A DNA stretch of 64,000 nt from Promethearchaeota archaeon. Its GTDB lineage: Archaea > Asgardarchaeota > Lokiarchaeia > Sigyniarchaeales > SOKP01. The translations under genes and the position numbers were made by a program. The stretch covers positions 1 through 64,000 of the forward strand of contig JAEOTA010000058.1 of assembly GCA_016840085.1 (NCBI GenBank), written 5' to 3'. The notes beneath the pieces are model-generated. The model made no database searches. It was not told where the DNA came from and saw only the letters and a list, made by a program, of their open reading frames with translations. This document shows positions 3,926 through 56,902 of this stretch, piece by piece; within the stretch, counting starts at the first letter, position 1, and every line of letters begins with the position of its first letter.

Positions 3926-4940
3926 ACCAACGATAAAATCGCGAAAATCCCTCAAAACCCCCAAAAAAGAGATCATTTGCATAACCCTCTTTTTCAGCAA
4001 CCTTATGAACATTTTGGTAACATTCCTCAAATGTATTCCCAGGATACATATTATCAATAAGAGTATAACATAATTGCTCAAAAACTTCATTGAATCTCAT
4101 GAGCTCAGAAGGACAAGATCCAAGAATATAATTATGACTTAGATCTCCTAAATAACATCCATATTCACTGTGCAGGTCTACGAGTAAGGATTCTCCTTCT
4201 TTAACTTCTTTATTTGTTGCAGGTGTGCATCCATTGAACGTCCAGCTTGCCCGATAGCCTGATCCAATCTCCTGACTACCTGTAAATGCCCATTCATAAT
4301 TACTACCTGCTTTTCTCATGGCTAATGTCCCTATTCCAGCAATTTCATTTTCAGTAAATACTTTCCCTTCAGGACGTTCACTCAATTCTTTCTTAACAAC
4401 TTCTTGTCCAATATCGGTAATTTCACTTGCTTTACGTAACATTGCAATCTCTTCTGGTTCCTTAATGAACTGGATTCTTTCGGTTTTATCATTGAAATCG
4501 ACTAATTCACATCCATGAAACATCTTCTTGAGTAATTCTGCTTCAGTGTAGGAAAGCATTTGACCAGTAATGCAAATATCTGTTCCCAATTCGACACCAA
4601 TTCTCGGTGGAGTACCTTTTGGGTTGTACACACCTTCTTTCTTCGCTGATTTTTGTAGTTTCTTTTCCCAATAAAACCCTTTCATCGGACCCCATCCACT
4701 TACTTTCTTTAAATTCCCCTCTGCTCTTATTCTTTCTACATCTAATAATACAGTAAATAATTCTGGTTCTCCCATTCCTTCTTTTGGTAAAAAAATATAG
4801 CTCTTCCAAGGAACAAAACAACCTGCAAGATAAGTTATAGATTTAACCCTTGAAAGTACACAGAAATCAAGGTTCAAATCTTCCATTGCTGCTTGATACT
4901 TTTTTATATGTCCTTTCCAATCTATCTGAGTTTCACTCAT
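3873..4940 (-). pseudogene. Xaa-Pro aminopeptidase (M24 family), 3'-truncated
   Basis: Creatinase N-domain, 'IKEPEEIAMLRKA' and metal-ligand Asp residues ('LVDL...GDLSH') are present. After 'GYANDL' the expected HGxGH and two Glu ligands are missing and the frame runs into unrelated sequence. Confidence 0.7.
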
Positions 4941-11819: not shown

Positions 11820-12299
11820 TCATTCTCTTTGATAAACCACCATGAATTCACAATAATTTTTACCTGATTGCAAGCTACACTCCAATTCCTGTGCAAAGCA
11901 ATGTACGTCAGACATTTTTTCCACAACTCCTGCTAATAATCCCGCTTCAAACGAACAAAAACTTCCTGTTGTTTTTATTCCTTTATTAATTAAATCCTTT
12001 ATAGAAGAATGATTTCTCAATTTGAGTTGTACTATTTCTCCCGTGCTCTCAGTAATTTCAACCTCACCAAGTTTATAATCTGAAATAAGATTTTTTAACT
12101 CATCAGGAATTTGATTAGGATCTTTAAGCTCTTTTACTTTTAATATTGTCCCTAATTCATGTCCTAAGTAATAAAATATTGCTTCTAGTTGATGTCCTAA
12201 AGCAAGTAAAGCACCTACTTTCATATCACCAATAGATTTGCCATCTTTTAAATTTTTTGTCATTTGAGCTAAAATTTTAGAAAGTAATTGTCGATCCAT
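11820..12299 (-). CDS. V4R domain protein (Bet3/TRAPP-related fold)
   Basis: 'FYYLGHELG', 'CSFEAGLLAGVV', 'ELECSLQSGKNYCEF' form the V4R C-x-F..G / E-x-x-C...C-x-F signature. Confidence 0.85.
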   Translation of the reverse strand: MDRQLLSKILAQMTKNLKDGKSIGDMKVGALLALGHQLEAIFYYLGHELGTILKVKELKDPNQIPDELKNLISDYKLGEVEITESTGEIVQLKLRNHSSIKDLINKGIKTTGSFCSFEAGLLAGVVEKMSDVHCFAQELECSLQSGKNYCEFMVVYQRE

Positions 12300-12360
12300 T
12301 TCTTTTCACTTAATTTATTATTTTTATTTTAATCAATTTCATATTTTTATATTTTTAAAA

Positions 12361-12660
12361 TTATATTTTAACAGAAGCGATAAACGCATATAATATAGCA
12401 TCTATAATTTCTTCCTCTTGTATATTTACATATAGTCTTTTATCTGCAATTATTAATGTTGGGACTGATGTGATTCTATAATCTAGCATAAATTGACGAT
12501 TCTCTTCTAATTCAATAGATATTTTTTGTATTCTCAATTTCTTTCCAAAATGTGAAATATTTATTTTTTTTAACATTTCTTCAACTGGTCTGCATGGTGC
12601 ACAATGATTTGACGAAAAAAACAAGATTTTCGGATATCCTTGATCAATATCATCATACAT
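12361..12660 (-). CDS. Thioredoxin family protein
   Basis: 'HCAPC' CxxC and cis-Pro loop 'ITSVPTLII'. Confidence 0.88.
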   Translation of the reverse strand: MYDDIDQGYPKILFFSSNHCAPCRPVEEMLKKINISHFGKKLRIQKISIELEENRQFMLDYRITSVPTLIIADKRLYVNIQEEEIIDAILYAFIASVKI

Positions 12661-12663
12661 TGT

Positions 12664-13203
12664 TTAGGCGTCTTTATATTTATTATATAAATCTTTAATT
12701 ATTGCTTGAAACGCTTTATAAACACCGGATCCCGTTTTAGCTGATGTCTTATAGTATCCAAGAAAATTTCTCTCATTTACAATTTTCACTACTTTTTCTT
12801 CGTCTAAATCTTCTTCCTTTACTAAATCTGTTTTATTACCAAACAAAACAATAGGTAATTCACCAGTGTAATTTTTAATATCCTCATACCAGTCCTCAAT
12901 ATGATTAAAACTATCTTCATCTGTATGAGAGAATACAATAATTGCTGCCTTGCTTCCCTTATAGAAAGTAGGTCGCATGAAATCAAATTCTCGTTGTCCC
13001 GCTATGTCCCAAAAGAATAATTTACAATTATTCCCTTCGATTTCTTCATCATATTTTGAAAATTGGGCTCCCAAAGTTTTTATATAATCCTTTTGAAAAC
13101 TTCCTTGAGTGTATTTTTTGATTAAACTTGTTTTTCCAACAGCCCCATCCCCTATAACGGTTATTTTGAAAACAAAGCCTTTTGCAACATCATTATTTAT
13201 CAT
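12664..13203 (-). CDS. Rab-like small GTPase
   Basis: G1 GDGAVGKTS, G2 YIKTLG, G3 WDIAGQ, G4 NKTD, G5 TSAK. Confidence 0.95.
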   Translation of the reverse strand: MINNDVAKGFVFKITVIGDGAVGKTSLIKKYTQGSFQKDYIKTLGAQFSKYDEEIEGNNCKLFFWDIAGQREFDFMRPTFYKGSKAAIIVFSHTDEDSFNHIEDWYEDIKNYTGELPIVLFGNKTDLVKEEDLDEEKVVKIVNERNFLGYYKTSAKTGSGVYKAFQAIIKDLYNKYKDA

Positions 13204-13367
13204 TTAATTCACTCTGTAGTGTTTTTTGAGAATAATATGGTTATTAATGTATTTATTTCGAAAATATAAGATATTATTTTATTATTTATTTTTATTTGTT
13301 ATTAATTTATATTTATGGTATTTTTTATAATAATAATTAATTGTTTTAAATGTTTTCATTGATATAG

Positions 13368-13817
13368 ATGTCTCAAAATCAAAACGATATGATGTTTTGT
13401 GAAGTTTGTACCATGAATTGTTATCCGGTTCGACCTAAATTCAATATTCTAATATTTGGAATTTTTGCTATTACCAATTTAGTAATATTAATTATTATTA
13501 CAATAATCTCTCTCTCTTTTTTTACTGACCTGTTCCTCTTTTTTTATTTCATGTGGGGGTTTATGGTTCTAAATCCCTACCTAATATATTATGGATTGAA
13601 AAAAAAGGAATATTGTCCAAGTTGTTATCGAAAAGTTGTTGAAAAAAATCTAGAATATCAACCATTCGGAGAGAAAAAACCAGAGATATACAAATCTCTA
13701 ACCCCTGTTAAAAAACCTCCAATAAAGTTGTTTTGTCCTTATTGTGGTAATTCCTTAATTGAAGGAACAAAATTTTGTAAGTCATGCGGGAAAAAATTTG
13801 AAATACAAAGGTCATGA
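13368..13817 (+). CDS. Membrane protein with split (LITAF-like) and C-terminal zinc ribbons
   Basis: CEVC - two hydrophobic helices - CPSC, then CPYC...CKSC. Confidence 0.7.
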   Translation: MSQNQNDMMFCEVCTMNCYPVRPKFNILIFGIFAITNLVILIIITIISLSFFTDLFLFFYFMWGFMVLNPYLIYYGLKKKEYCPSCYRKVVEKNLEYQPFGEKKPEIYKSLTPVKKPPIKLFCPYCGNSLIEGTKFCKSCGKKFEIQRS

Positions 13818-13823
13818 TGAATT

Positions 13824-14300
13824 TTGGACGTTTTAAAAAGAATTGAGAAAATAATTAAAAATTTTACTGAAAAAAGTATTCACATTGCTATCGCAGAATC
13901 ATGCACCGGTGGCTATATTTCGAATATGATTACAAATGTTTCTGGGGCTTCAAATATTTTTGAGAGAGGAATTGTGTGCTATAGTAATCGAGCAAAAATA
14001 GATTCAGTTAATGTAAATCCTAAAACAATTGTAGAATATGGTGCTGTGTCTAAAGAAGTTGTAAAACAGCTAGCAAATAATATTAGAGTCCTTTCTAATG
14101 TAGATATAGGAATTGGTATAAGTGGTATCGCTGGACCAACAGGTGGTACACCAGAAAAACCAGTTGGCTTAGTTTTTATAGGATTTTCTACAGAGAAAGA
14201 AACTATAGTAAAAAAATATAGGTTTGAAACAGAACGTATAACTTTTAAGCAAAACGTTCTAGAAAAAGTTATTCAGTTTTTAGAAAATCTTAATCTCTGA
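13824..14300 (+). CDS. cinA: CinA C-terminal domain protein / NMN deamidase (PncC-like)
   Basis: 'AESCTGG', 'SGAS', 'YSN.AK', 'GIAGPTGGTPEKPVGLV'. Confidence 0.93.
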   Translation: MDVLKRIEKIIKNFTEKSIHIAIAESCTGGYISNMITNVSGASNIFERGIVCYSNRAKIDSVNVNPKTIVEYGAVSKEVVKQLANNIRVLSNVDIGIGISGIAGPTGGTPEKPVGLVFIGFSTEKETIVKKYRFETERITFKQNVLEKVIQFLENLNL

Positions 14301-14330
14301 ATTGATAAAAATATAAAATTAATCAAATTT

Positions 14331-15518
14331 TTATTCTTCTATTAATTTACCATTTTCCATAATTGTTTTCTTAGAACCATCTTTGTATTCTACAGTAATA
14401 TTTTCTTTGGGAGCGGTTATAAAATCCCAATGCATCTGAGAGACTGAAGTGCCTCCAAATGATATATTAAACCCAAAAGCAAGATGTACACTTCCATTTA
14501 TTTTTTCATCTGTAAGAATATATCCAACTGGTTTTGTTATTACTGGATTGCAACCTATACCAAGTTCACCAACATTATAAGTCCGAAGCTCTGGAACATT
14601 ATTTTTTCTGTCAATTTCTTCTCTTTGTTTAAATGCATTAATTAATACATCCAGGTTCGTATCCGCAGACAATTTATCAATTATTAATTTTCCATCTTTG
14701 AAAAATAACTCCACATTTTTAATGAACTTATGTGTATACCTTTCTTTTGTTAGCGGAATAAATAACTTACCTTCTCCTTGTTTTTCATGAGGGGGGAAAT
14801 AAACCTCACCAGCAGGTAAATTACCTCCCAAATTTCCCATTGCAATCTGTTCATCTGATATCATTCCATCATCAAGAATTCTTGCTCGATCCTCTATTAA
14901 AACCCAAAAATCTGTTCCATTTTCATCTGTTACATACACTTTCTTAGCATTTACAAATTTATCACCTAAATTTTGTACAATGTTCTTAAATTTGTCTGCG
15001 GGAATACTCATCCCATCAACTATGAATTTTTCAAATAACTCATAATCAATATTGTAAAAATTTGCTGCTTTTTTAGAAGGCCATGCAGCATAGCACCATT
15101 TCTTTCCAGGTGCATATTCTTCCTTAAATCCATAAAGTACATCTCTTTCTGGTGCAATTGATTTTGTATAAGCATCAAGTTTTTCTTTCGGTACTTTAGT
15201 TCGAATAGATGGATCTTCGAGTGGCTCAACAACAATATATGCATCGATATTTTTTATCATCTCTAAATAATGCTTTCTTGTTTTTTCTAATGTTGTTACT
15301 TTTATTCTTTCATCTGTAAACCTTGATTCATCAAAATAATCAGATATAGATGTTATATGTGGAATTCCCCCTTTTCTAAAAACACTTAAACCTATTTCTT
15401 CCAATAATTCATGTGCGTATAAACCGCCTGAAATAAGAACACATTCACCCTCTTTTTTTATACTTATACTTTTAGCAATGTTTTCAGCACATAATTTAAT
15501 CTTTTCTTTAATAATCAT
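14331..15518 (-). CDS. Aminopeptidase, M29 family
   Basis: 'NLPAGEVY', 'GELGIG', 'DEKINGSVHLAFG', 'HWDF'. Confidence 0.92.
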   Translation of the reverse strand: MIIKEKIKLCAENIAKSISIKKEGECVLISGGLYAHELLEEIGLSVFRKGGIPHITSISDYFDESRFTDERIKVTTLEKTRKHYLEMIKNIDAYIVVEPLEDPSIRTKVPKEKLDAYTKSIAPERDVLYGFKEEYAPGKKWCYAAWPSKKAANFYNIDYELFEKFIVDGMSIPADKFKNIVQNLGDKFVNAKKVYVTDENGTDFWVLIEDRARILDDGMISDEQIAMGNLGGNLPAGEVYFPPHEKQGEGKLFIPLTKERYTHKFIKNVELFFKDGKLIIDKLSADTNLDVLINAFKQREEIDRKNNVPELRTYNVGELGIGCNPVITKPVGYILTDEKINGSVHLAFGFNISFGGTSVSQMHWDFITAPKENITVEYKDGSKKTIMENGKLIEE

Positions 15519-15730
15519 AATTTTTGAAAATTAATTATCAATAAAATTTCTTTTCAATTATGAAATATGAATATAATTCTATGAAATCTTGCTTATAATT
15601 AAGTAATAACTGAGAAAATAAGAAAGTCAAAGAATTTATTACATTAAATAGTTATATTTAACGTAGTAAGTTTAAAAATTTTTAATAAGAATATATTTAT
15701 AATTTTCTATTTGAAGAATTAAAATTAAAA

Positions 15731-16195
15731 ATGGTTGTCCGAGAAGCTGGGCTATTATTCCGAGGTTTCACATTAGTGAAGAAGACTTTTCATAAATCAG
15801 ACAAAGGAGAGATTGATCAAGACTTACGCAGTGGACTATTAACTGCTATCATTAGTTTTGCCCAGTCTGCTATTTCGAAAGATTCAATTGAATATTTTGA
15901 GGGTAAGAAGTATATTATTACTTTTTTAGAGGATAAAATTACGGCTGAAGACAGTTTCGAACCAGAAATTATAATGTCATATACTATTTTAGATAAAGGG
16001 AAAAAAATGGAGAAATACATTCGAAAAGTAATTCAACCACTATTAAAGCAGATTATTGATGAATTTAAACTTCTGAATTCAGGTAAAAATTTATCAGAAA
16101 TTTCTCGGTTTAGAGATTTTAAACGGAATCTAGATACTATATTCGGAACTGATACACAAACTGTCGATCAAAAATTAAAAGGAGTTTTTTCTTAA
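15731..16195 (+). CDS. Longin-like single-domain protein
   Basis: 'IDQDLRSGLLTAIISFA' helix motif typical of Asgard longin-like domains. Confidence 0.6.
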   Translation: MVVREAGLLFRGFTLVKKTFHKSDKGEIDQDLRSGLLTAIISFAQSAISKDSIEYFEGKKYIITFLEDKITAEDSFEPEIIMSYTILDKGKKMEKYIRKVIQPLLKQIIDEFKLLNSGKNLSEISRFRDFKRNLDTIFGTDTQTVDQKLKGVFS

Positions 16196-16234
16196 AACTT
16201 TTAAAATTCTTCTTATATAAACGATAAAATATTT

Positions 16235-17182
16235 TTAAACCCGAGACTTTTTTAAGTACCACAATATTATTGGTAATGCAATAGTTGCATCAGAGATAAT
16301 TGTAGAATATTTTGCACTTTCATTAATTTTCCCCCAAGATATTGCTTCTTTTAAGGTTGCACCACTCAATCCTCCAGATTCAGGGCGATCCATTGTAATT
16401 TGAATAGCATAAGATGCCGAATTAGGGCAAAATTGTAGAGATTGCATTATGAAGTTTTTAGGTACTCCACCTCCTACAATGCATATTCCTGCTTTCTTTG
16501 CATCCCACGCTAAATTAACCATTTCGAGCATATCTTTAAAATGATTCAAATTTATTTTTTGATGATGGAACCCAAGTTGTAACGCCAAACCAGAATCAGT
16601 AAAAGCTGGACAAAATATAGGAACTTCTTTCTCAGCGCATATCTTCAAAATAGATTGTGAACTTTTAGGTAGTTGTTGACCAAGATAATATAAAAATGAG
16701 CTCACAGTCATTTGATAATCAGGAATTTTCAATTTTGATATGAAATCTTCAATTCCCTCATACACTTTATTTGGCATAAAAACATCATATATTCTATTAA
16801 TTTCTTCCTTATGTAATTCAGAATCATCGAGATCGTTTGGATTAATATAATCACCTTGCAAATGATGATACCCCAGCGCTTCTGCAAGATCATGCGTTAA
16901 GTTTGCGCCAGTGGTTACTAAAATATCAATAAATCCCTCTTTTATAAAATCATAAATAATTCTTTGCATACCTGCTGGAACCATAGCTCCAGCTAATCCA
17001 AAAAATTTCACACACTCATTATCATTCACCATTTCATTATAGATTTCACAAGCTAGCGCTAGTCTTTTAGCGTTAAATCCTGTGCCTTTGAGAGAATTTA
17101 TAAGTTGTACAATATCCATATCATTAGCAATTTCAAATTGATTAACTTTTTTCCACAATTCTTTTAAATCTTTATTTGGCAT
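16235..17182 (-). CDS. dys: Deoxyhypusine synthase
   Basis: 'TTGANLTHD', 'GGGVPKN', 'GGLSGATLKEAISWGK' with catalytic Lys. Confidence 0.96.
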   Translation of the reverse strand: MPNKDLKELWKKVNQFEIANDMDIVQLINSLKGTGFNAKRLALACEIYNEMVNDNECVKFFGLAGAMVPAGMQRIIYDFIKEGFIDILVTTGANLTHDLAEALGYHHLQGDYINPNDLDDSELHKEEINRIYDVFMPNKVYEGIEDFISKLKIPDYQMTVSSFLYYLGQQLPKSSQSILKICAEKEVPIFCPAFTDSGLALQLGFHHQKINLNHFKDMLEMVNLAWDAKKAGICIVGGGVPKNFIMQSLQFCPNSASYAIQITMDRPESGGLSGATLKEAISWGKINESAKYSTIISDATIALPIILWYLKKSRV

Positions 17183-51365: not shown

Positions 51366-51490
51366 AACTAAATCAATTGGAAAGTTAATTTTTTTTTTTT
51401 AATTTAATTTTAATTTTTTTAAATGTATAAATTTTTCATCGATTTAAATAAAATTATATAATTTTTTAAAAAAAATAAAATAAAGGTTAA

Positions 51491-52252
51491 TTAAACGTCT
51501 CGAGTTTTAAATCTCAGGTAAGAAAGTATAAGACAAGGGATAAGATACGAAAGTGCTATGTAGATTGCTAATAATAAATCTATGTTCATCTCAGACATTG
51601 CTGCCTCTCCTATAAAAATAGCTTGTCCGACTATTTCTAGATAAATGAAGGTTGGATTTGGAACACTTGGATCAATAAATAGTAAAATTGCAAACAATAT
51701 GGCCGAACTTGTGAATATAATAAATCCTATTATCATAGCTTGACTGCCTGATCTAAATATAGCACTAAATAGAAGATAAAGAGAGGTACACGATATACCA
51801 ATTAAGCAATAATATCCAAACCATAAAATTAATTCAACAGGTATGGTATTGTACTCTATTAAACAAATAATAGATGTTACTATGAATGCAGGAGCGATCC
51901 AGACTAAGACACTAGTAAAAGCAGCAAAAGTTTTTCCAATAAAAAAATTATTGCGTCCAGTTTTCGTAAAATTAGTTAATGCTGTCTTTCTATCAAATTC
52001 ATTCGCTATAATTCCGCCAGCAAAAAATAGAGTTAAAAGGTAGGAAAATGTACCTATTTGACTAAGAGTACTTCCACAAAAAAGCTTTGCATTAGGCATT
52101 GATAAGGACATTAGAGATGTCAAAATGACAGCTACTACCGATAATAAAGCAACTAAAATATATCTCTTTCTCTGGAGAAAAATTTCGAACCTGTAGACAT
52201 TGAAGATTTGCTTTAAATTAAAATTTTCTTCTATAATTAAATTGGAGTTCAC
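51491..52252 (-). CDS. ABC-2 type permease
   Basis: 6 TM, 'IANEFDRKT', 'FFIGK', C-term 'FKTRDV'. Confidence 0.88.
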   Translation of the reverse strand: MNSNLIIEENFNLKQIFNVYRFEIFLQRKRYILVALLSVVAVILTSLMSLSMPNAKLFCGSTLSQIGTFSYLLTLFFAGGIIANEFDRKTALTNFTKTGRNNFFIGKTFAAFTSVLVWIAPAFIVTSIICLIEYNTIPVELILWFGYYCLIGISCTSLYLLFSAIFRSGSQAMIIGFIIFTSSAILFAILLFIDPSVPNPTFIYLEIVGQAIFIGEAAMSEMNIDLLLAIYIALSYLIPCLILSYLRFKTRDV

Positions 52253-53274
52253 TCTTTCAATTCACCTCCATTTTTGTTATCATCTTCATCTACTAGACTT
52301 ATATACAAATCTTCTAACCGAGAAGTGCGGTCTTTGCTAAATCCGACAATTGGAAGTCTCATGTCTATAGATAAAATTTCGTGAATTTTCTTAAGAGATA
52401 ACGGTGTCCCATTGTAAAATATATTGAAACCAGGAAGAACTTCATCGTATGTGACAAAATTTTTAGCCCCATTTTCGCAATATTGTTCAATTTTATTCCT
52501 GATTTCATTTACTACTTTATCAACTTGTGAAAATTCGAGTGGCTCAAAAAGTTCGCATTGGATTTGCTTTTTAGTCATTTTCTGTTCTAAATTGATTAGA
52601 GTGTCCGCTGCAATTAAATTTCCACGATTAATTATGACTATTCGATCACAGACTTCTGATATTTCATACAATAGATGAGACGAGAGAAAAATTGTTTTCC
52701 CCATTTTTTTCAATTTTTGCAAGATATTTCGAACTAGAATGCGTCCTGAAGGATCCAAACCTGTTTGAGGTTCGTCAAGAACAAGCAAATCAGGATCATG
52801 TACTAGTGCCTGTGCAAGTCCTAACCTTTGAACCATTCCTTTTGAAAATTCTTTTATGATTTTGTTTTTCCATTTTGACATTTCAACAACATCAAGCGCC
52901 CAGTCTACTCGTTTTTCAATAATATCTTTAGATAATCCTAATAAACGACAATAATAACGAAGTATCTGATTTGGGGTTACTTGTCCGTAAAAGGCGGGCA
53001 AATCAATTAAAAAACCAATTTGTTTAAAAAGATCAGCTGGTTTTTTCTTTATATCAATTAAGTCCCCATTATGATTATATATTTCGATTTTGCCACTCGT
53101 CGGTTTAATTAATCCGCCTAACATTTTCATAGTTGTTGTTTTCCCTGCTCCATTGGGACCGACAAATCCTAAGATTTCACCTTCATAAATTTCCAAATTT
53201 AAATTATTTACTGCCATTAAATCATGGAACCTTTTACTAAGGTTCGTGAACTTTACTATAGTTTTATTTGACAT
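52249..53274 (-). CDS. ABC-2 type ATP-binding protein
   Basis: GPNGAGKTT, FSKGMVQR, LDEP.TGLDP, SSH. Confidence 0.95.
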   Translation of the reverse strand: MSNKTIVKFTNLSKRFHDLMAVNNLNLEIYEGEILGFVGPNGAGKTTTMKMLGGLIKPTSGKIEIYNHNGDLIDIKKKPADLFKQIGFLIDLPAFYGQVTPNQILRYYCRLLGLSKDIIEKRVDWALDVVEMSKWKNKIIKEFSKGMVQRLGLAQALVHDPDLLVLDEPQTGLDPSGRILVRNILQKLKKMGKTIFLSSHLLYEISEVCDRIVIINRGNLIAADTLINLEQKMTKKQIQCELFEPLEFSQVDKVVNEIRNKIEQYCENGAKNFVTYDEVLPGFNIFYNGTPLSLKKIHEILSIDMRLPIVGFSKDRTSRLEDLYISLVDEDDNKNGGELKE

Positions 53275-53529
53275 ATTTACTACAAATCGTTATTTTTAAT
53301 TTTGAATACTATAGGCTTGTATTTCCAAAAGAGAAATTAGAAGTATCGTAATATTTAACTTATGGAATCCAATTTTTCTATTTTCAGTTTTGTGAATTAA
53401 ATCAATTAGAACCTTAATTAGAATCTTAGGAAAACAAAATTTCTAAAAGAGAATTTTTAGAGTTAAAATTTCTCTCATGAAATTTAAAATTTTTCTGAGA
53501 GGTTGATTAACTTTTCTTCAATTAGCAGA

Positions 53530-53564
53530 AAAGGTAAATTCAGAGTCTGATTTCAATGAAAATT
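53530..53564. repeat. 35-bp direct repeat, left copy
   Basis: AAAGGTAAATTCAGAGTCTGATTTcaATGAAAATT; 33/35 identical to 54553-54587. Confidence 0.85.
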
Positions 53565-53648
53565 CCTATGAAAAAAAGAAACTCACATTTTTTCATGAAA
53601 TTTTTGCTTAATAAATGGAATAATTATTAAAAATGATGTTACATAGGT

Positions 53649-54479
53649 ATGAATATGAACCGTATCCAAATCAAAGCTCGCGGATTTACGTTTGATGCCT
53701 GGTCAGATGGGCCGGAAGAGGGGCCCTTGCTACTGTTATTGCATGGTTTGCCCCGAACGAGCTGGGAGTGGCACCATCAACTGCCGAAATTAGCTGAGGC
53801 TGGGTTCCGAACTGTTGTGCCTGATCTGAGGGGTTATTGTCCGGGTGCGCGACCTGAAGGTGTGGAGGCATATGTTGTAGATGAGTTTGTCGAAGATATA
53901 CTGGCAATTGCCGATCAGCTTGGATGGGGGGATCGACCATTTCATCTTATGGGTACCAGTATCGGCTCAGTGGTTGCATGGTGTATTGCCGGAGAGTATC
54001 CACAGCGGGTAGCGACGCTGGCTTGCATCAACATTCCACATCCTATGGCAATTGTTGAGGTGATGGCGACAGAGGCGGCGGATAAACAACGACAAAAGAT
54101 GAGTTATTTTTCTAATTTCAGAAAAGAGGGCAATCAATTGAAAATGTTTGAGTCTACCCTTAAACGCATGGAATTGCCGGCCGAAGAGACCGACCCGTAT
54201 CGTGAGGCGCTCAGCAGCGAAGAAGCGCTTCGGGCCATTTTTCACTGGTATCGGGTACTTAAAATTCCACCACTAAAACCGGTTGTCATGCCCACTCTGT
54301 ACATTTGGCCCCGAAAGGCAGGTAATGTTTCCCGGGAGGCGGCTGAAGCAAATGCGCATTATGTTGAAGCACCGTATCGATTCGAGATCCTCGAAGTTGC
54401 GCGCAATTTCGCACTTCAAATGGAGCCTGAAAAGATAACCCATCTATTGCTTGAGCATCTGGCTGAACACGCTCAATAA
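53649..54479 (+). CDS. Epoxide-hydrolase-like alpha/beta hydrolase, GC-rich (recent HGT), atypical triad
   Basis: 'LLHGLP...W.HQL..LA.AGF..V.PDLRGY', nucleophile elbow GTSIG; about 50% GC versus about 30% in flanks. Confidence 0.88.
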   Translation: MNMNRIQIKARGFTFDAWSDGPEEGPLLLLLHGLPRTSWEWHHQLPKLAEAGFRTVVPDLRGYCPGARPEGVEAYVVDEFVEDILAIADQLGWGDRPFHLMGTSIGSVVAWCIAGEYPQRVATLACINIPHPMAIVEVMATEAADKQRQKMSYFSNFRKEGNQLKMFESTLKRMELPAEETDPYREALSSEEALRAIFHWYRVLKIPPLKPVVMPTLYIWPRKAGNVSREAAEANAHYVEAPYRFEILEVARNFALQMEPEKITHLLLEHLAEHAQ

Positions 54480-54526
54480 AACTATGCGTTGAACATTGGC
54501 TTGGTTCGAGCCTTTTTAAATTTTGT

Positions 54527-54548
54527 CCCAATTTCATAGGAAATTGGG
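54527..54548. other. Perfect 9-bp hairpin downstream of the GC-rich gene
   Basis: CCCAATTTC-ATAG-GAAATTGGG. Confidence 0.6.
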
Positions 54549-54552
54549 TTGG

Positions 54553-54587
54553 AAAGGTAAATTCAGAGTCTGATTTTCATGAAAATT
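54553..54587. repeat. 35-bp direct repeat, right copy
   Basis: AAAGGTAAATTCAGAGTCTGATTTtcATGAAAATT. Confidence 0.85.
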
Positions 54588-54678
54588 TATTTGAAATAAA
54601 TCTTATTTTCTTGGATGGCAAAATCAAAGTCTGACACTAAAATTTTTAAATTTACTTATATCATAGAAATTTAGTGAG

Positions 54679-55650
54679 ATGATATTTTCAGAAAGCGAGA
54701 TTGAAAATATTTTAAGATATTATGATGTTGGTTCATTGGTTAAATTCAAGGGAAAATTAGACAATGGGTTTCAGAGTGAAAATTTTCATATTTTGACTGA
54801 GAGAGGGGATTTTGTCGTCAGAGTTATATATGATACTGAAAAAAACATAAAGATATGCATGAGAGTATATGAATATTTAGCTAGAAATGGTATTAAGACA
54901 CCAAATCCTATGAGTAACAAAGAAAATGCTCTCTTTTTGTCATATAAAGAGCAGTTTGTCGTTATCCAAACTTTTCTGGAGGGAAGCGATGAATCTAATA
55001 TCAAAAAAATAAATCAACTGCTACCCTTTTTTGGAAAAAAATTAGGAAAAATACACTATATCTCAAAAAAAATGGTTGATGAGCTCGGAAAAGAAATTTT
55101 CGTTAGAGATCAAGATACCATAACAGCTGTTAGAAATATGGCAAGGAGATATATGGTAAAGGATGATTATATCTATAACCAGTATAAGGAATGGGAGAAA
55201 GAAATAGAAAAGTTACCAGCTCATTTATTAACTAAGGCGGTTATTCATGGGGATATCGGACCTAAAGACTTTTTCTTTAAAAAGGGAATCTTTACGGGAA
55301 TAATGGATTTTAATGCTGCGGGATATGACTGTTTGCTCTTTGACATCGCTCCGATGATGATGTATTGCGGATTATATCATCCAAAAAGAATTGAAGATTA
55401 TATTAGATTTGTTCACGCTTATTTGGAAGAGTCTCCTGTCAAAAAAGAAGAATTTAAATGGTTATATCTTATTCTTAAGACAAGATGGTTAGGGCAAATT
55501 TTTTATCATCAGTATAGATATGCAGAGGGAATCACAAGAGGTCTGGATACAAATAACAGAGAAGAGAATCTACAAGGAGTGGAAGATGGGAAGTATTTTT
55601 TAAAAATATTAGAACAATTTTCACATGATGATTTTTTTACAGTATTATAG
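54679..55650 (+). CDS. APH/type II homoserine kinase family phosphotransferase
   Basis: 'G.QSENF...T..G.FV.R', 'LGKIH', 'IHGDIG..D', 'GIMDF', 'FDIA'. Confidence 0.85.
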   Translation: MIFSESEIENILRYYDVGSLVKFKGKLDNGFQSENFHILTERGDFVVRVIYDTEKNIKICMRVYEYLARNGIKTPNPMSNKENALFLSYKEQFVVIQTFLEGSDESNIKKINQLLPFFGKKLGKIHYISKKMVDELGKEIFVRDQDTITAVRNMARRYMVKDDYIYNQYKEWEKEIEKLPAHLLTKAVIHGDIGPKDFFFKKGIFTGIMDFNAAGYDCLLFDIAPMMMYCGLYHPKRIEDYIRFVHAYLEESPVKKEEFKWLYLILKTRWLGQIFYHQYRYAEGITRGLDTNNREENLQGVEDGKYFLKILEQFSHDDFFTVL

Positions 55651-55732
55651 AACAGGGTTAAAAATTTTTAATTAATTGAATTTCGAATAAGAAAAGGTTC
55701 AAAAAAAAAAATACAATTTAAGAATTACATTT

Positions 55733-56902
55733 TCAAGATTTCTTTATTTTTTTGCTTATAAGGATTGCTACAAAGGATAGAACACCAAGTAGAATGAATA
55801 CATTATATCCTGGAATTATACCATCTCCATTATCATCTCCTTCTTCAGGAAGAAGTGGACACTTCATTAGTGGAAAATTATCCTGAGAACCTTCTGTACT
55901 TGTAACATTATATGGCGTATCCCCTATACCGTCATCATTAGCATCTACACCATTGTAATCATCCCAATAATTACCAATAGTTCCATTGTCCCATTGGTTA
56001 TCTATTCCACTATCCCTAGCATTTAATCCATTCCCGATAAAACAGTTTTTGTTTACAAGGTTTTCATCGCTCCTATCTGATAGGGATATCCCAGTTTCAC
56101 TATTATCGTTTGTGATATTTTCCGAGAGGGTATTATTATTGCAATAATCATCTAAATGTATCCCTTCATTAGAATTCTTATGTGCGGTGTTTCTCGAGAG
56201 AGTGTTGAAATTACATCTTAACCATAATAATATTCCACGATCTCTATTGTCATTCACGATATTTCCTGAGATGGTATTATAACTACAGCGATCTTTAAAT
56301 GTAATTCCTACATTATTATTTTTTAAAGTATTTCCTATAATAATATTAACATCACAATTTGAGTCAAGTCTAATCCCCGCCCAGACATTGTCGTTTACTC
56401 TACAATTCGAAATTGTATTATTATCACAATCATTATAGAGAAATATTCCATGCCTGTTGTTATTTGAACAGGTATTATTTATCAAAATTCCGTAATTTGT
56501 GTATTCCAATCGGATCCCTGCGTCATTTGTCTCATTACCCGCATTGTAAACAGAGCAATTTCTGATTATAAAATCCTCATTTTTGGAATTTTGTATAAAA
56601 ATCCCACTTCCCGTCGGTGAACCATTGGCGTCAATTATAACGTTTTCAATAACATAAAATCCATTGACAAAAGTACACCATGGTTTTATAAGAGTTTCTG
56701 TCCAATTACCATCAATATGTATAAAAGATTCGATATAAGTTACAGATAATTTCAGGCTTTTTAAATTAGTCTCATATTGAATTTCTATGGTTCCATCATT
56801 ATTCCCTTGATCGTCAATGATATTAAAATTGCTAATGGTCGATACTGCGAAAATCATCCCGAAAACTATTATAGTCATTTTTATTTTGTTTTTATTTCTC
56901 AT
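55733..56902 (-). CDS. Beta-helix (NosD-like) surface protein, 7 repeats, Loki-CTERM-type anchor
   Basis: Same N-cap ('YVIENV.ID'), C-cap ('WDNGTIGNYWDDY.GVDANDDGIGDTPY') and 'IPGYNVFILLG' tail. Confidence 0.9.
   Translation of the reverse strand: MRNKNKIKMTIIVFGMIFAVSTISNFNIIDDQGNNDGTIEIQYETNLKSLKLSVTYIESFIHIDGNWTETLIKPWCTFVNGFYVIENVIIDANGSPTGSGIFIQNSKNEDFIIRNCSVYNAGNETNDAGIRLEYTNYGILINNTCSNNNRHGIFLYNDCDNNTISNCRVNDNVWAGIRLDSNCDVNIIIGNTLKNNNVGITFKDRCSYNTISGNIVNDNRDRGILLWLRCNFNTLSRNTAHKNSNEGIHLDDYCNNNTLSENITNDNSETGISLSDRSDENLVNKNCFIGNGLNARDSGIDNQWDNGTIGNYWDDYNGVDANDDGIGDTPYNVTSTEGSQDNFPLMKCPLLPEEGDDNGDGIIPGYNVFILLGVLSFVAILISKKIKKS

Follow-up and report, generated by a model that had tools for sequence, protein, structure and literature searches.

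A bacterial-type hydrolase gene between direct repeats points to a candidate cassette system in a Lokiarchaeia family

Asgard genomes carry many bacterial genes, and the ways in which such genes enter and circulate bear on the origin of the eukaryotic gene set. A single locus in a Lokiarchaeia genome (here G000; 4.68 Mb in 89 contigs, mean GC 29.5%) raises this question on a small scale: in the window, by which we mean the whole 64,000-nt stretch that was analysed (positions 1-64000 of contig C53), an alpha/beta-hydrolase gene of foreign composition stands between two direct repeats. What are these repeats, how did the gene come to lie between them, and which enzyme may have been at work? The original prediction, made from the letters of the window, favoured a single-gene acquisition at a repeated recombination site (integron- or dif-module-like, or MITE-mediated) with the recombinase acting in trans, and named a duplicated operator as the alternative. 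By comparing the locus with related genomes we arrive at a reading that we consider likely to be correct: the repeat, a site of about 48 nt termed REP, would be the attachment site of a lineage-specific, Xer-like tyrosine recombinase (Int_REP) co-transcribed with a ribbon-helix-helix (RHH) partner, and the hydrolase gene would be a non-autonomous cassette of that system.

The hydrolase gene has a GC content of about 50% against the genome mean of 0.295, and in 200-nt windows the GC fraction is 0.44-0.54 across 53600-54500 and 0.22-0.31 on either side, which bears out the earlier description of a GC-rich reading frame in AT-rich DNA. The direct repeats (53530-53577 and 54553-54600) are spaced 1023 bp apart and agree at 88% of 48 nt, the first 24 without a mismatch, in keeping with the 33 of 35 matching positions first reported; their 23-nt core has two exact matches in the window and none in 100 shuffled sequences. 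The dyad TCAGA-G-TCTGA in the repeat core, the inverted pair inside the repeats (53563-53573 and 54532-54542) and the perfect 9-bp hairpin (arms 54527-54535 and 54540-54548, loop ATAG) were all found at the places given for them. A degenerate third core had also been proposed; its letters exist (54620-54633), but a profile built from 89 copies of the site finds nothing there even at E<=10, and this core near 54621 is probably not a member of the REP family. The open reading frame at 53649-54479 contains an in-frame second ATG at 53655, and because homologues elsewhere begin at this second ATG, behind an AGGAGG, the true start of the hydrolase is likely to be 53655 and not 53649. An Rfam scan at the gathering threshold gave no match at the repeat or elsewhere in the window, and a tRNA scan of the window found no tRNA gene; a thermosome gene is present in the window. 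The features of the locus are collected in Table 1.

Table 1. Features at and around the hydrolase locus (positions in the window)
Feature	Position	Strand	Evidence or remark
ABC-transporter ATPase, conserved left flank	52249..53274	-	Pfam ABC_tran; permease at 51491-52252
REP_L, left site copy, short form (without upstream hairpin)	53527..53575	+	nhmmer 52.8 bits, E=1.4e-13; fits 89-copy consensus -6 to +42
Variable linker after REP_L	53576..53624	+	Unalignable with the same cassette in G067:C179
Promoter/RBS stretch travelling with the hydrolase gene	53625..53654	+	Kept in the G004, G018 and G067 gene copies in unrelated contexts
Alpha/beta-hydrolase gene, 274 aa, GC ~0.50	53655..54479	+	Pfam Abhydrolase_1, 88 bits
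Remnant of RHH-recombinase operon promoter and 5' leader	54503..54525	-	Aligns to the interval from REP to RHH start of intact modules (G018, G042, G059) and to ~30 long-form REPs
9-bp hairpin/palindrome of the long-form site	54527..54548		Fold calculation
REP_R, right site copy, long form, travels with the hydrolase cassette	54550..54598	+	nhmmer 49.1 bits
APH-family phosphotransferase gene, right neighbour, itself accessory	54679..55650	+	Pfam APH

The hydrolase gene is distributed patchily within the genus, being present only in G004 and G018 among the 24 genomes first sampled, and additionally in G067. Among its best ~80 database matches (67-96% identity), those with a name are labelled Loki or Promethearchaeota, except for one partial Methanomassiliicoccales record, and homologues from proteobacterial MAGs come next at about 50-67% identity. 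At 13 archaeal loci the gene has a GC content of 0.44-0.52 against flanks of 0.31-0.39, an excess of 8-20 points, and since the contrast recurs in this way it is not an assembly artefact; on the proteobacterial contigs the gene equals its flanks (0.53-0.62). Because its GC matches the flanks in bacteria and exceeds them in archaea, the direction of transfer was likely from a GC-rich bacterium into the archaeal lineage, a reading based on identity ranking together with GC content. The prediction that the gene is foreign is thus supported by bacterial homologues of 50-60% identity in proteobacterial MAGs whose GC matches that of the gene. The protein itself is of a generic alpha/beta fold, with every NCBIfam match far under its cut-off.

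The repeat is not confined to this locus. A search of the genome for it, which the original prediction had named as a check, found eight significant copies in G000 (two each on C53 and C56, and one each on C49, C57, C1 and C9). With a 32-nt core and up to three mismatches allowed (a reversed-pattern control gave 0 matches), the site was detected in 51 of the 54 genomes of the genus, at 1-34 copies each, and in 100 of 134 genomes of one Lokiarchaeia family, representing nine genera; none of 19 genomes from other families of the same order contained the core, and IMG/VR viral contigs gave no match to it. When 89 copies are stacked without gaps, strong conservation extends over about 48 positions (-6 to +42 relative to GGTAAATT), with one freely variable base in the dyad (positions 7-17) and a variable tail from about position 32. 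In 31 of 118 copies, including REP_R and a copy on C56, the site has a long form, in which a T-rich stretch and a hairpin extend it on the 5' side; the arms of this hairpin vary yet keep their pairing, the loop is reverse-complemented in the C56 copy, and the inner inverted pair at the hydrolase locus is the long-form hairpin matching the REP tail. We considered the upstream hairpin as a general feature of REP and rejected it, for it accompanies only about a quarter of the copies and its folding energy differs weakly from controls (p=0.09, p=0.02). The core itself folds no better than shuffles (z 0.13 and -0.04), and as single-strand folding is not significant, it is simpler to assume that the site is recognised as duplex DNA.

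Where REPs lie close together they form arrays of a strict polarity: all 54 neighbouring pairs less than 10 kb apart, drawn from 14 fetched loci, are co-oriented, at a median spacing of 1.36 kb (range 0.28-9.3 kb). Between successive REPs there are one to three genes, in either orientation, and linkers of 50-100 nt behind the sites are common. One contig carries up to 10 sites (at the threshold of three mismatches) and the largest number per genome is 34, in G002; contigs often end inside arrays, the species-representative genomes being fragmented exactly there. The cargo includes a large family of TPR proteins (600-690 aa) as well as LVIVD-repeat proteins, acyltransferases, a carboxylesterase, and CoA-ligase-like, MBL-fold and GyrI-like/flavin-reductase genes. 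The recurrent neighbours of 600-690 aa were considered as possible enzymes and ruled out, as these TPR proteins are cargo, and the genes that flank the arrays (thermosome, radical SAM, LVIVD, ribosomal protein S11) include no recombinase. The hydrolase locus is a clean example of a bacterial-type gene with foreign GC at a defined, oriented site that recurs family-wide at the joints between accessory packets, which upholds the proposal of acquisition at a repeated recombination site; strand exchange at that site is suggested by comparative anatomy.

An all-against-all comparison of REP loci from different genomes uncovered many shared packets whose ends fall on REPs in both genomes and which stand in differing orders. 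One packet of 970 bp, for example, is 93.6% identical between G042:C186 and G001:C392 and has REPs at both ends; others ending at REPs are shared by G041:C13 and G051:C48 and by G002:C25 and G049:C19, and positions 15340-16293 of C56 in G000 are shared with G002:C25. Counting against the cassette model, the homology of several shared cassettes begins 50-120 nt from the REP and not inside it. The same hydrolase (96% identical in both amino acids and nucleotides) occurs in G067, on contig C179, between two co-oriented REPs and among other neighbours; homology between the two loci begins about 25 nt upstream of the ATG, spans both gene and hairpin, and ends within the right REP, at about position 20 of that site. 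The cassettes that flank the hydrolase in G067 (CoA-ligase-like and MBL-fold) sit in G000 on C56, a small REP array. The point at which the 3' end of the hydrolase unit is fused to the RHH leader is common to G000 and G067, which indicates that the unit spread as a whole.

Differences in what follows a given REP were found as well. The ABC operon and adjoining intergenic DNA of the window (51399-53577) are 96% identical to contig C38 of G067, where one REP, matching REP_L exactly as far as about position 33, closes this flank, and behind it lies unrelated DNA with neither the hydrolase nor the APH gene; the same REP behind the same gene carries different content in two close relatives. Empty-site alleles had been named earlier as a check; G067 has the same left flank with one REP followed by other DNA and holds the hydrolase packet in a different array. 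It is not a strict empty site, since the right flanks differ, and a precise empty allele of the C53 locus was not found: the route through the right flank failed, the APH and NosD-like genes to the right of the locus being themselves patchy (each in 3 of 53 genomes of the genus); where APH orthologues occur, they adjoin a methyltransferase gene, without a REP. A cleaner contrast between a filled and a single site comes from another locus: G074:C514 has a single REP, flanked on the left by DNA that matches the sequence to the left of the first REP in an array of six (7.2 kb) in G073:C171, and on the right by DNA that matches the sequence to the right of the last REP in the same array; the duplicated segment comprises the REP and about 145 nt, and homologous recombination explains this case equally well. 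The hydrolase gene of three other genomes has a REP about 100 nt upstream of it in the opposite orientation, and in one of these (L063) REPs bracket the hydrolase that way round, an arrangement not expected of a single fixed cassette and one that counts against it; we tentatively read the oppositely oriented hydrolase as a separate capture.

The position of the putative crossover within the site can be approached through polymorphisms of the REP. In a set of 124 REPs with flanks, excess identity at polymorphic core positions disappears by about 11-21 in pairs with only the left flank in common and persists from about 12-21 onward in pairs with only the right flank in common, the numbers being small (35 and 10 pairs). 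In one cassette the REP tail shows a rare variant beginning at position 24, with position 10 differing. Because the linkage to the flanks switches at about 11-21, the data point to a crossover in the dyad (positions 7-17), putatively at about positions 8-20, and such a location fits the core site of a tyrosine recombinase.

A candidate for that enzyme was found beside the site. The strand opposite the long-form extension bears a TATA-like box, an SD-like GGAGG and the gene start MSEKSKPNK; when intact, this gene has a 172-aa product whose N-terminus is RHH-like (NikA-like, 26 bits, just below the Pfam cut-off), and the gene overlaps the start of a 302-aa tyrosine recombinase, Int_REP. The recombinase matches PF00589 with 81 bits, and the six catalytic residues R151, K175, H242, R245, H268 and Y278 are invariant in six homologues. 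Its best solved relative is XerA (5HXY, E=1e-14), although it scores below the NCBIfam XerA cut-off (90.6 vs 220 bits), and it likewise falls below the cut-offs for integron integrases (TIGR02249, 48.5 vs 265 bits; PRK15417, 19 vs 435). At G018:C29, G042:C168 and G042:C193 a REP stands about 85 nt upstream of the operon and divergent from it, and G059:C122 and C129 have the same arrangement with a diverged site. A module of 1.75 kb containing Int is conserved between loci; it starts exactly at the REP edge, continues for about 240 nt beyond int and has a REP-like core at its end. Larger units are visible as well: in G042:C168 the REPs at 13568 and 4248 have the same rare variants in common and bound a 9.3-kb stretch in which Int and RHH lie on the 4248 side, and in G059:C129 two tandem modules lie 12.4 kb apart. 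In complete elements the REP core forms the first codons of a gene of 415-590 aa, gene X, reading away from the RHH-Int operon. Beside the REPs of arrays the RHH gene is usually truncated to 20-63 codons, and elements without int retain the site together with remnants of the RHH promoter and truncated RHH starts, as at REP_R (54503-54598) and at 16628 of C56 in G000.

The operon is sporadic and multi-copy: it occurs in 23 of 135 family genomes (~17%), fragments are numerous, and G059 has as many as four copies. G000 yielded none, tblastn returning only XerA, 24% identical to Int_REP, and a PF00589 search of REP-rich genomes returned only XerA, in G002 with its 34 REPs. That most REP-bearing genomes are without Int_REP, the site being strongly conserved there too, counts against the proposed link between the two; no long array was seen directly beside an intact Int_REP, and contigs often break in arrays. 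Two Int copies of G103, 67-71% identical, are accompanied by a variant site at those two copies only, and a test of co-variation between site and Int in this genome spoke neither for nor against the link. The early suggestion of a recombinase acting in trans agrees with these observations, in that an operon of RHH and tyrosine recombinase adjoins the site in relatives and was not found in G000. We infer its action, the cutting and rejoining of REP by Int_REP, from sequence comparison.

We hypothesize that a complete element would be laid out as REP, gene X, cargo, Int, RHH, hairpin and REP, and that most REP-bounded units have lost Int, RHH and gene X while retaining the site and one to three cargo genes. 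After such decay a REP would have the RHH promoter and hairpin to its left, as the long form, and a variable stub of gene X to its right, which would account for the unalignable linkers of 50-100 nt; the linker at 53576-53624 is possibly a remnant of the first codons of gene X. The hydrolase unit would accordingly run from REP_L through the linker, its own promoter, the gene, about 30 nt of foreign 3' sequence, the remnant of the RHH leader and the hairpin to REP_R. If REP_L and REP_R recombined, the product would be a 1023-bp circle carrying one REP, and this putative circle could insert at any other REP. Reduced units of this kind may behave as integron cassettes or as cis-mobilizable remnants stacked at one attachment site. 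As no Int_REP gene was found in G000, its cassette would be movable only in trans: it may be fixed, or mobile only when an Int-bearing element, or possibly the host XerA, is present.

Other explanations of the repeats have to be weighed against this one. REPs may be scars of the control region of a decayed integrative element, with packets reshuffled by homologous recombination between repeats of 50-170 nt and no site-specific enzyme at work today. The remnants of RHH and gene X, of varied length beside REPs, are what such scars would look like, Int_REP is missing from most REP-bearing genomes, and the polymorphism between G073 and G074 is bounded by the REP plus about 145 nt, its breakpoint falling at the distal limit of this segment. 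Decay is what one would expect of scars, whereas 32 nt have persisted (with at most three mismatches) across nine genera between unalignable flanks; scars would hardly explain why every one of the 54 neighbouring pairs has the same orientation, and the homology of shared cassettes and of the Int module often ends at or inside the 48-nt core, so that we regard this explanation as unlikely. MITE-mediated capture, part of the original prediction, is unsupported because the site is an oriented direct repeat and has no terminal inverted repeats.

A regulatory role for REP, as an operator for RHH or another factor, a promoter or an insulator copied before co-regulated genes, would generalize the duplicated operator first named as the alternative. 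RHH proteins usually autoregulate, intact modules place the site beside the RHH gene promoter, the core has a dyad, and both C53 copies lie about 120 nt upstream of a start codon. Copies are found, by contrast, directly after stop codons at the 3' ends of genes, between convergent genes and beside genes of either orientation; the cargo is functionally unrelated (TPR, LVIVD, esterases, CoA-ligase-like, MBL-fold), no RHH gene is present in most REP-bearing genomes, and packets that change place at REPs are left unaccounted for, which makes a regulatory site very improbable. We give still less weight to the view that REP marks a conserved coding junction (one frame reads VNSESDFNENSFEK) in large polymorphic proteins, with arrays storing displaced C-terminal tips in the manner of CDI/Rhs orphan arrays. 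The core does form the first codons of the 415-590-aa gene in complete elements, and in G042:C168 one REP lies in frame inside an open reading frame with 1008 open codons upstream that resemble giant proteins, the other in frame with a 576-aa reading frame that has a weak toxin-deaminase match; even so, 122 of 127 REPs fall outside any long open reading frame (median 19 open codons), cargo genes are served by promoters of their own and lie in either orientation, and the hydrolase cassette has no coding continuity.

If REP is instead the attachment site of Int_REP, a comparison with known cassette systems becomes instructive. The attC sites of integrons are imperfect palindromes of 57-141 nt, recognized as folded single strands, conserved in structure over sequence and bearing a GTTRRRY core. 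Like integrons, especially sedentary chromosomal ones, and integrase-less attC clusters (CALINs), REP arrays are co-oriented, with one type of site separating small packets of accessory genes that are common to several genomes in other orders, and many arrays stand without an enzyme; as in integrons, a tyrosine recombinase is divergent from one copy of the site. Unlike attC, REP is conserved in sequence and not in structure, with no significant fold, R/L boxes or GTTRRRY, which agrees with the original observation that the repeats do not fit the attC consensus: the core folds no better than shuffles and the consensus of the copies is without the motif. Further differences are that Int_REP lies below the IntI model cut-off, has an RHH partner and resides on a mobile element and not on a fixed platform, and that REP cassettes hold one to three genes with their own promoters in either orientation. 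No IntI-type integrase gene is present in G000. In layout the REP system is thus integron-like, and with neither attC structure nor a recombinase of the IntI clade it is not an integron.

We put at about even chances the broader proposition that this Lokiarchaeia family runs a cassette system evolved independently of integrons, in which a mobile Xer-like recombinase with RHH would act on a 48-nt, sequence-defined site and elements that lose the enzyme would shrink to single-gene cassettes moving in trans, stacked as arrays that admit and shuffle bacterial genes. If true, it would constitute a route of entry and shuffling for bacterial genes in close relatives of eukaryotes, and it would suggest that cassette systems may arise through the shrinkage of integrative elements. 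A candidate enzyme pair, Int_REP and RHH, can now be named for the 48-nt site and its 1-kb substrate. Integrons of the attC/IntI type have been reported as enriched in Asgard MAGs (Ghaly et al. 2022, PMC9668308), and like these archaeal integrons the REP system would carry genes from bacteria into Asgard archaea; those in the literature rely on attC and IntI, and the REP system does not. In a limited literature search, the REP site was not described in Ghaly et al. 2022 or in the papers on aloposons or Atabeyarchaeia mobile elements. Aloposons (PMC8813620) were considered as relatives and set aside, being giant-gene, tRNA-targeting elements unrelated to the REP system.

Two further systems resemble the REP arrays in other respects. 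Int_REP is Xer-like, and as in Xer/dif systems short conserved sites bracket small accessory modules; in the dif modules of Acinetobacter such sites alternate in orientation. Unlike these, REPs are direct, and no convincing 11-6-11 layout is apparent by eye. Int_REP also differs from the housekeeping XerA, being a separate Xer-like protein, and XerA may still act on REP. Integrase-less derivatives stacked at an att site are known from the CIMEs of streptococcal ICEs and from tandem islands at tRNA genes. Like CIMEs, REP units are bounded by direct copies of the site, stand in tandem and have remnants of int-side genes at their joints; they would likewise derive from elements that lost int and could be mobilised in trans by a related integrase. 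By origin the REP system looks like stacked integrase-less derivatives of an integrative element. Unlike CIMEs, REP units are smaller (0.3-3 kb, often one gene), with up to 34 sites per genome in several arrays, have no recognisable conjugation or virus module, and their site is not a tRNA gene. Integrase genes classically adjoin tRNA genes, and one RHH-Int module, a 45%-identical version in G043, lies 195 nt from a tRNA-Gly gene.

To the right of the cassette that carries the GC-rich alpha/beta-hydrolase gene lie an APH-family kinase gene and a gene for a NosD-like beta-helix protein, each found in only three of the 53 genomes of the genus, and everything from the ABC operon as far as the thermosome gene has the look of variable DNA. 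On the G067 contig that carries the left flank, the start of the ABC gene and the adjoining intergenic region recur as a 196-nt duplicate (95% identity to the window), about 10.5 kb from the original and about 3 kb beyond the contig's second REP, the putative recombinase attachment site. A partial hydrolase copy (81% identity) is present in the chromosome of a Methanomassiliicoccales MAG; it also includes the 3' hairpin of the cassette, reaching approximately REP position 7, and is immediately preceded by a run of N. This copy represents either a cross-phylum transfer or a Loki fragment misplaced in a scaffolded MAG.

The hairpin of the long-form REP has an identical stem in the window and on another contig of the same genome (C56), while its 4-nt loop is reverse-complemented (ATAG in the window, CTAT on C56); it looks as if the entire structure had been inverted between the two copies.

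The most common array cargo is a family of MalT-like TPR proteins of 600-690 aa (loci L044, L045, L046 and L047; arrays of G002 and G064), with several paralogues within a single array and, in one case, an ORF whose open reading frame continues in phase from the REP. In the 9.3-kb element on G042:C168, too, a long ORF contains a REP in its reading frame, and the 1008 open codons upstream of this REP share 31-38% identity with portions of giant ORFs of 3,000-20,000 aa in relatives; the element's second REP shares its frame with an ORF of 576 aa, which weakly matches a toxin deaminase. This element may exchange a giant protein's C-terminal end.

Conservation of the recombinase module extends about 240 nt beyond the int stop codon and terminates in ACTCTGTGAATT, a short motif similar to the dyad of REP that could be a partial second site or an arm-type site. 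In several distant RHH-integrase modules, the RHH gene is preceded at a distance of about 100 nt by a common motif, TTTCACGA, and one distant module (45% identity) adjoins tRNA-Gly(TCC).

Coordinates of the features described in the text
Sequence	Position	Feature
Window	53214-53409	ABC-gene start and intergenic region
Window	54536-54539	Hairpin loop
Window	54679-56902	APH-family kinase and NosD-like genes
G000:C56	~16560	Hairpin, second copy
G067:C38	8612-8807	196-nt duplicate
G067:C38	11736	Second REP
L062 (CP070739)	4001-4810	Partial hydrolase copy with 3' hairpin
L115 (G042:C168)	12138-16619	Long ORF containing REP
L115	2467-4197	576-aa ORF
L115	5786-5983	Conserved stretch 3' of int
L116	1522-1760	Conserved stretch 3' of int
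L117	3833-4046	Conserved stretch 3' of int
L107 (G043:C79)	1234-1944	Distant RHH-integrase module
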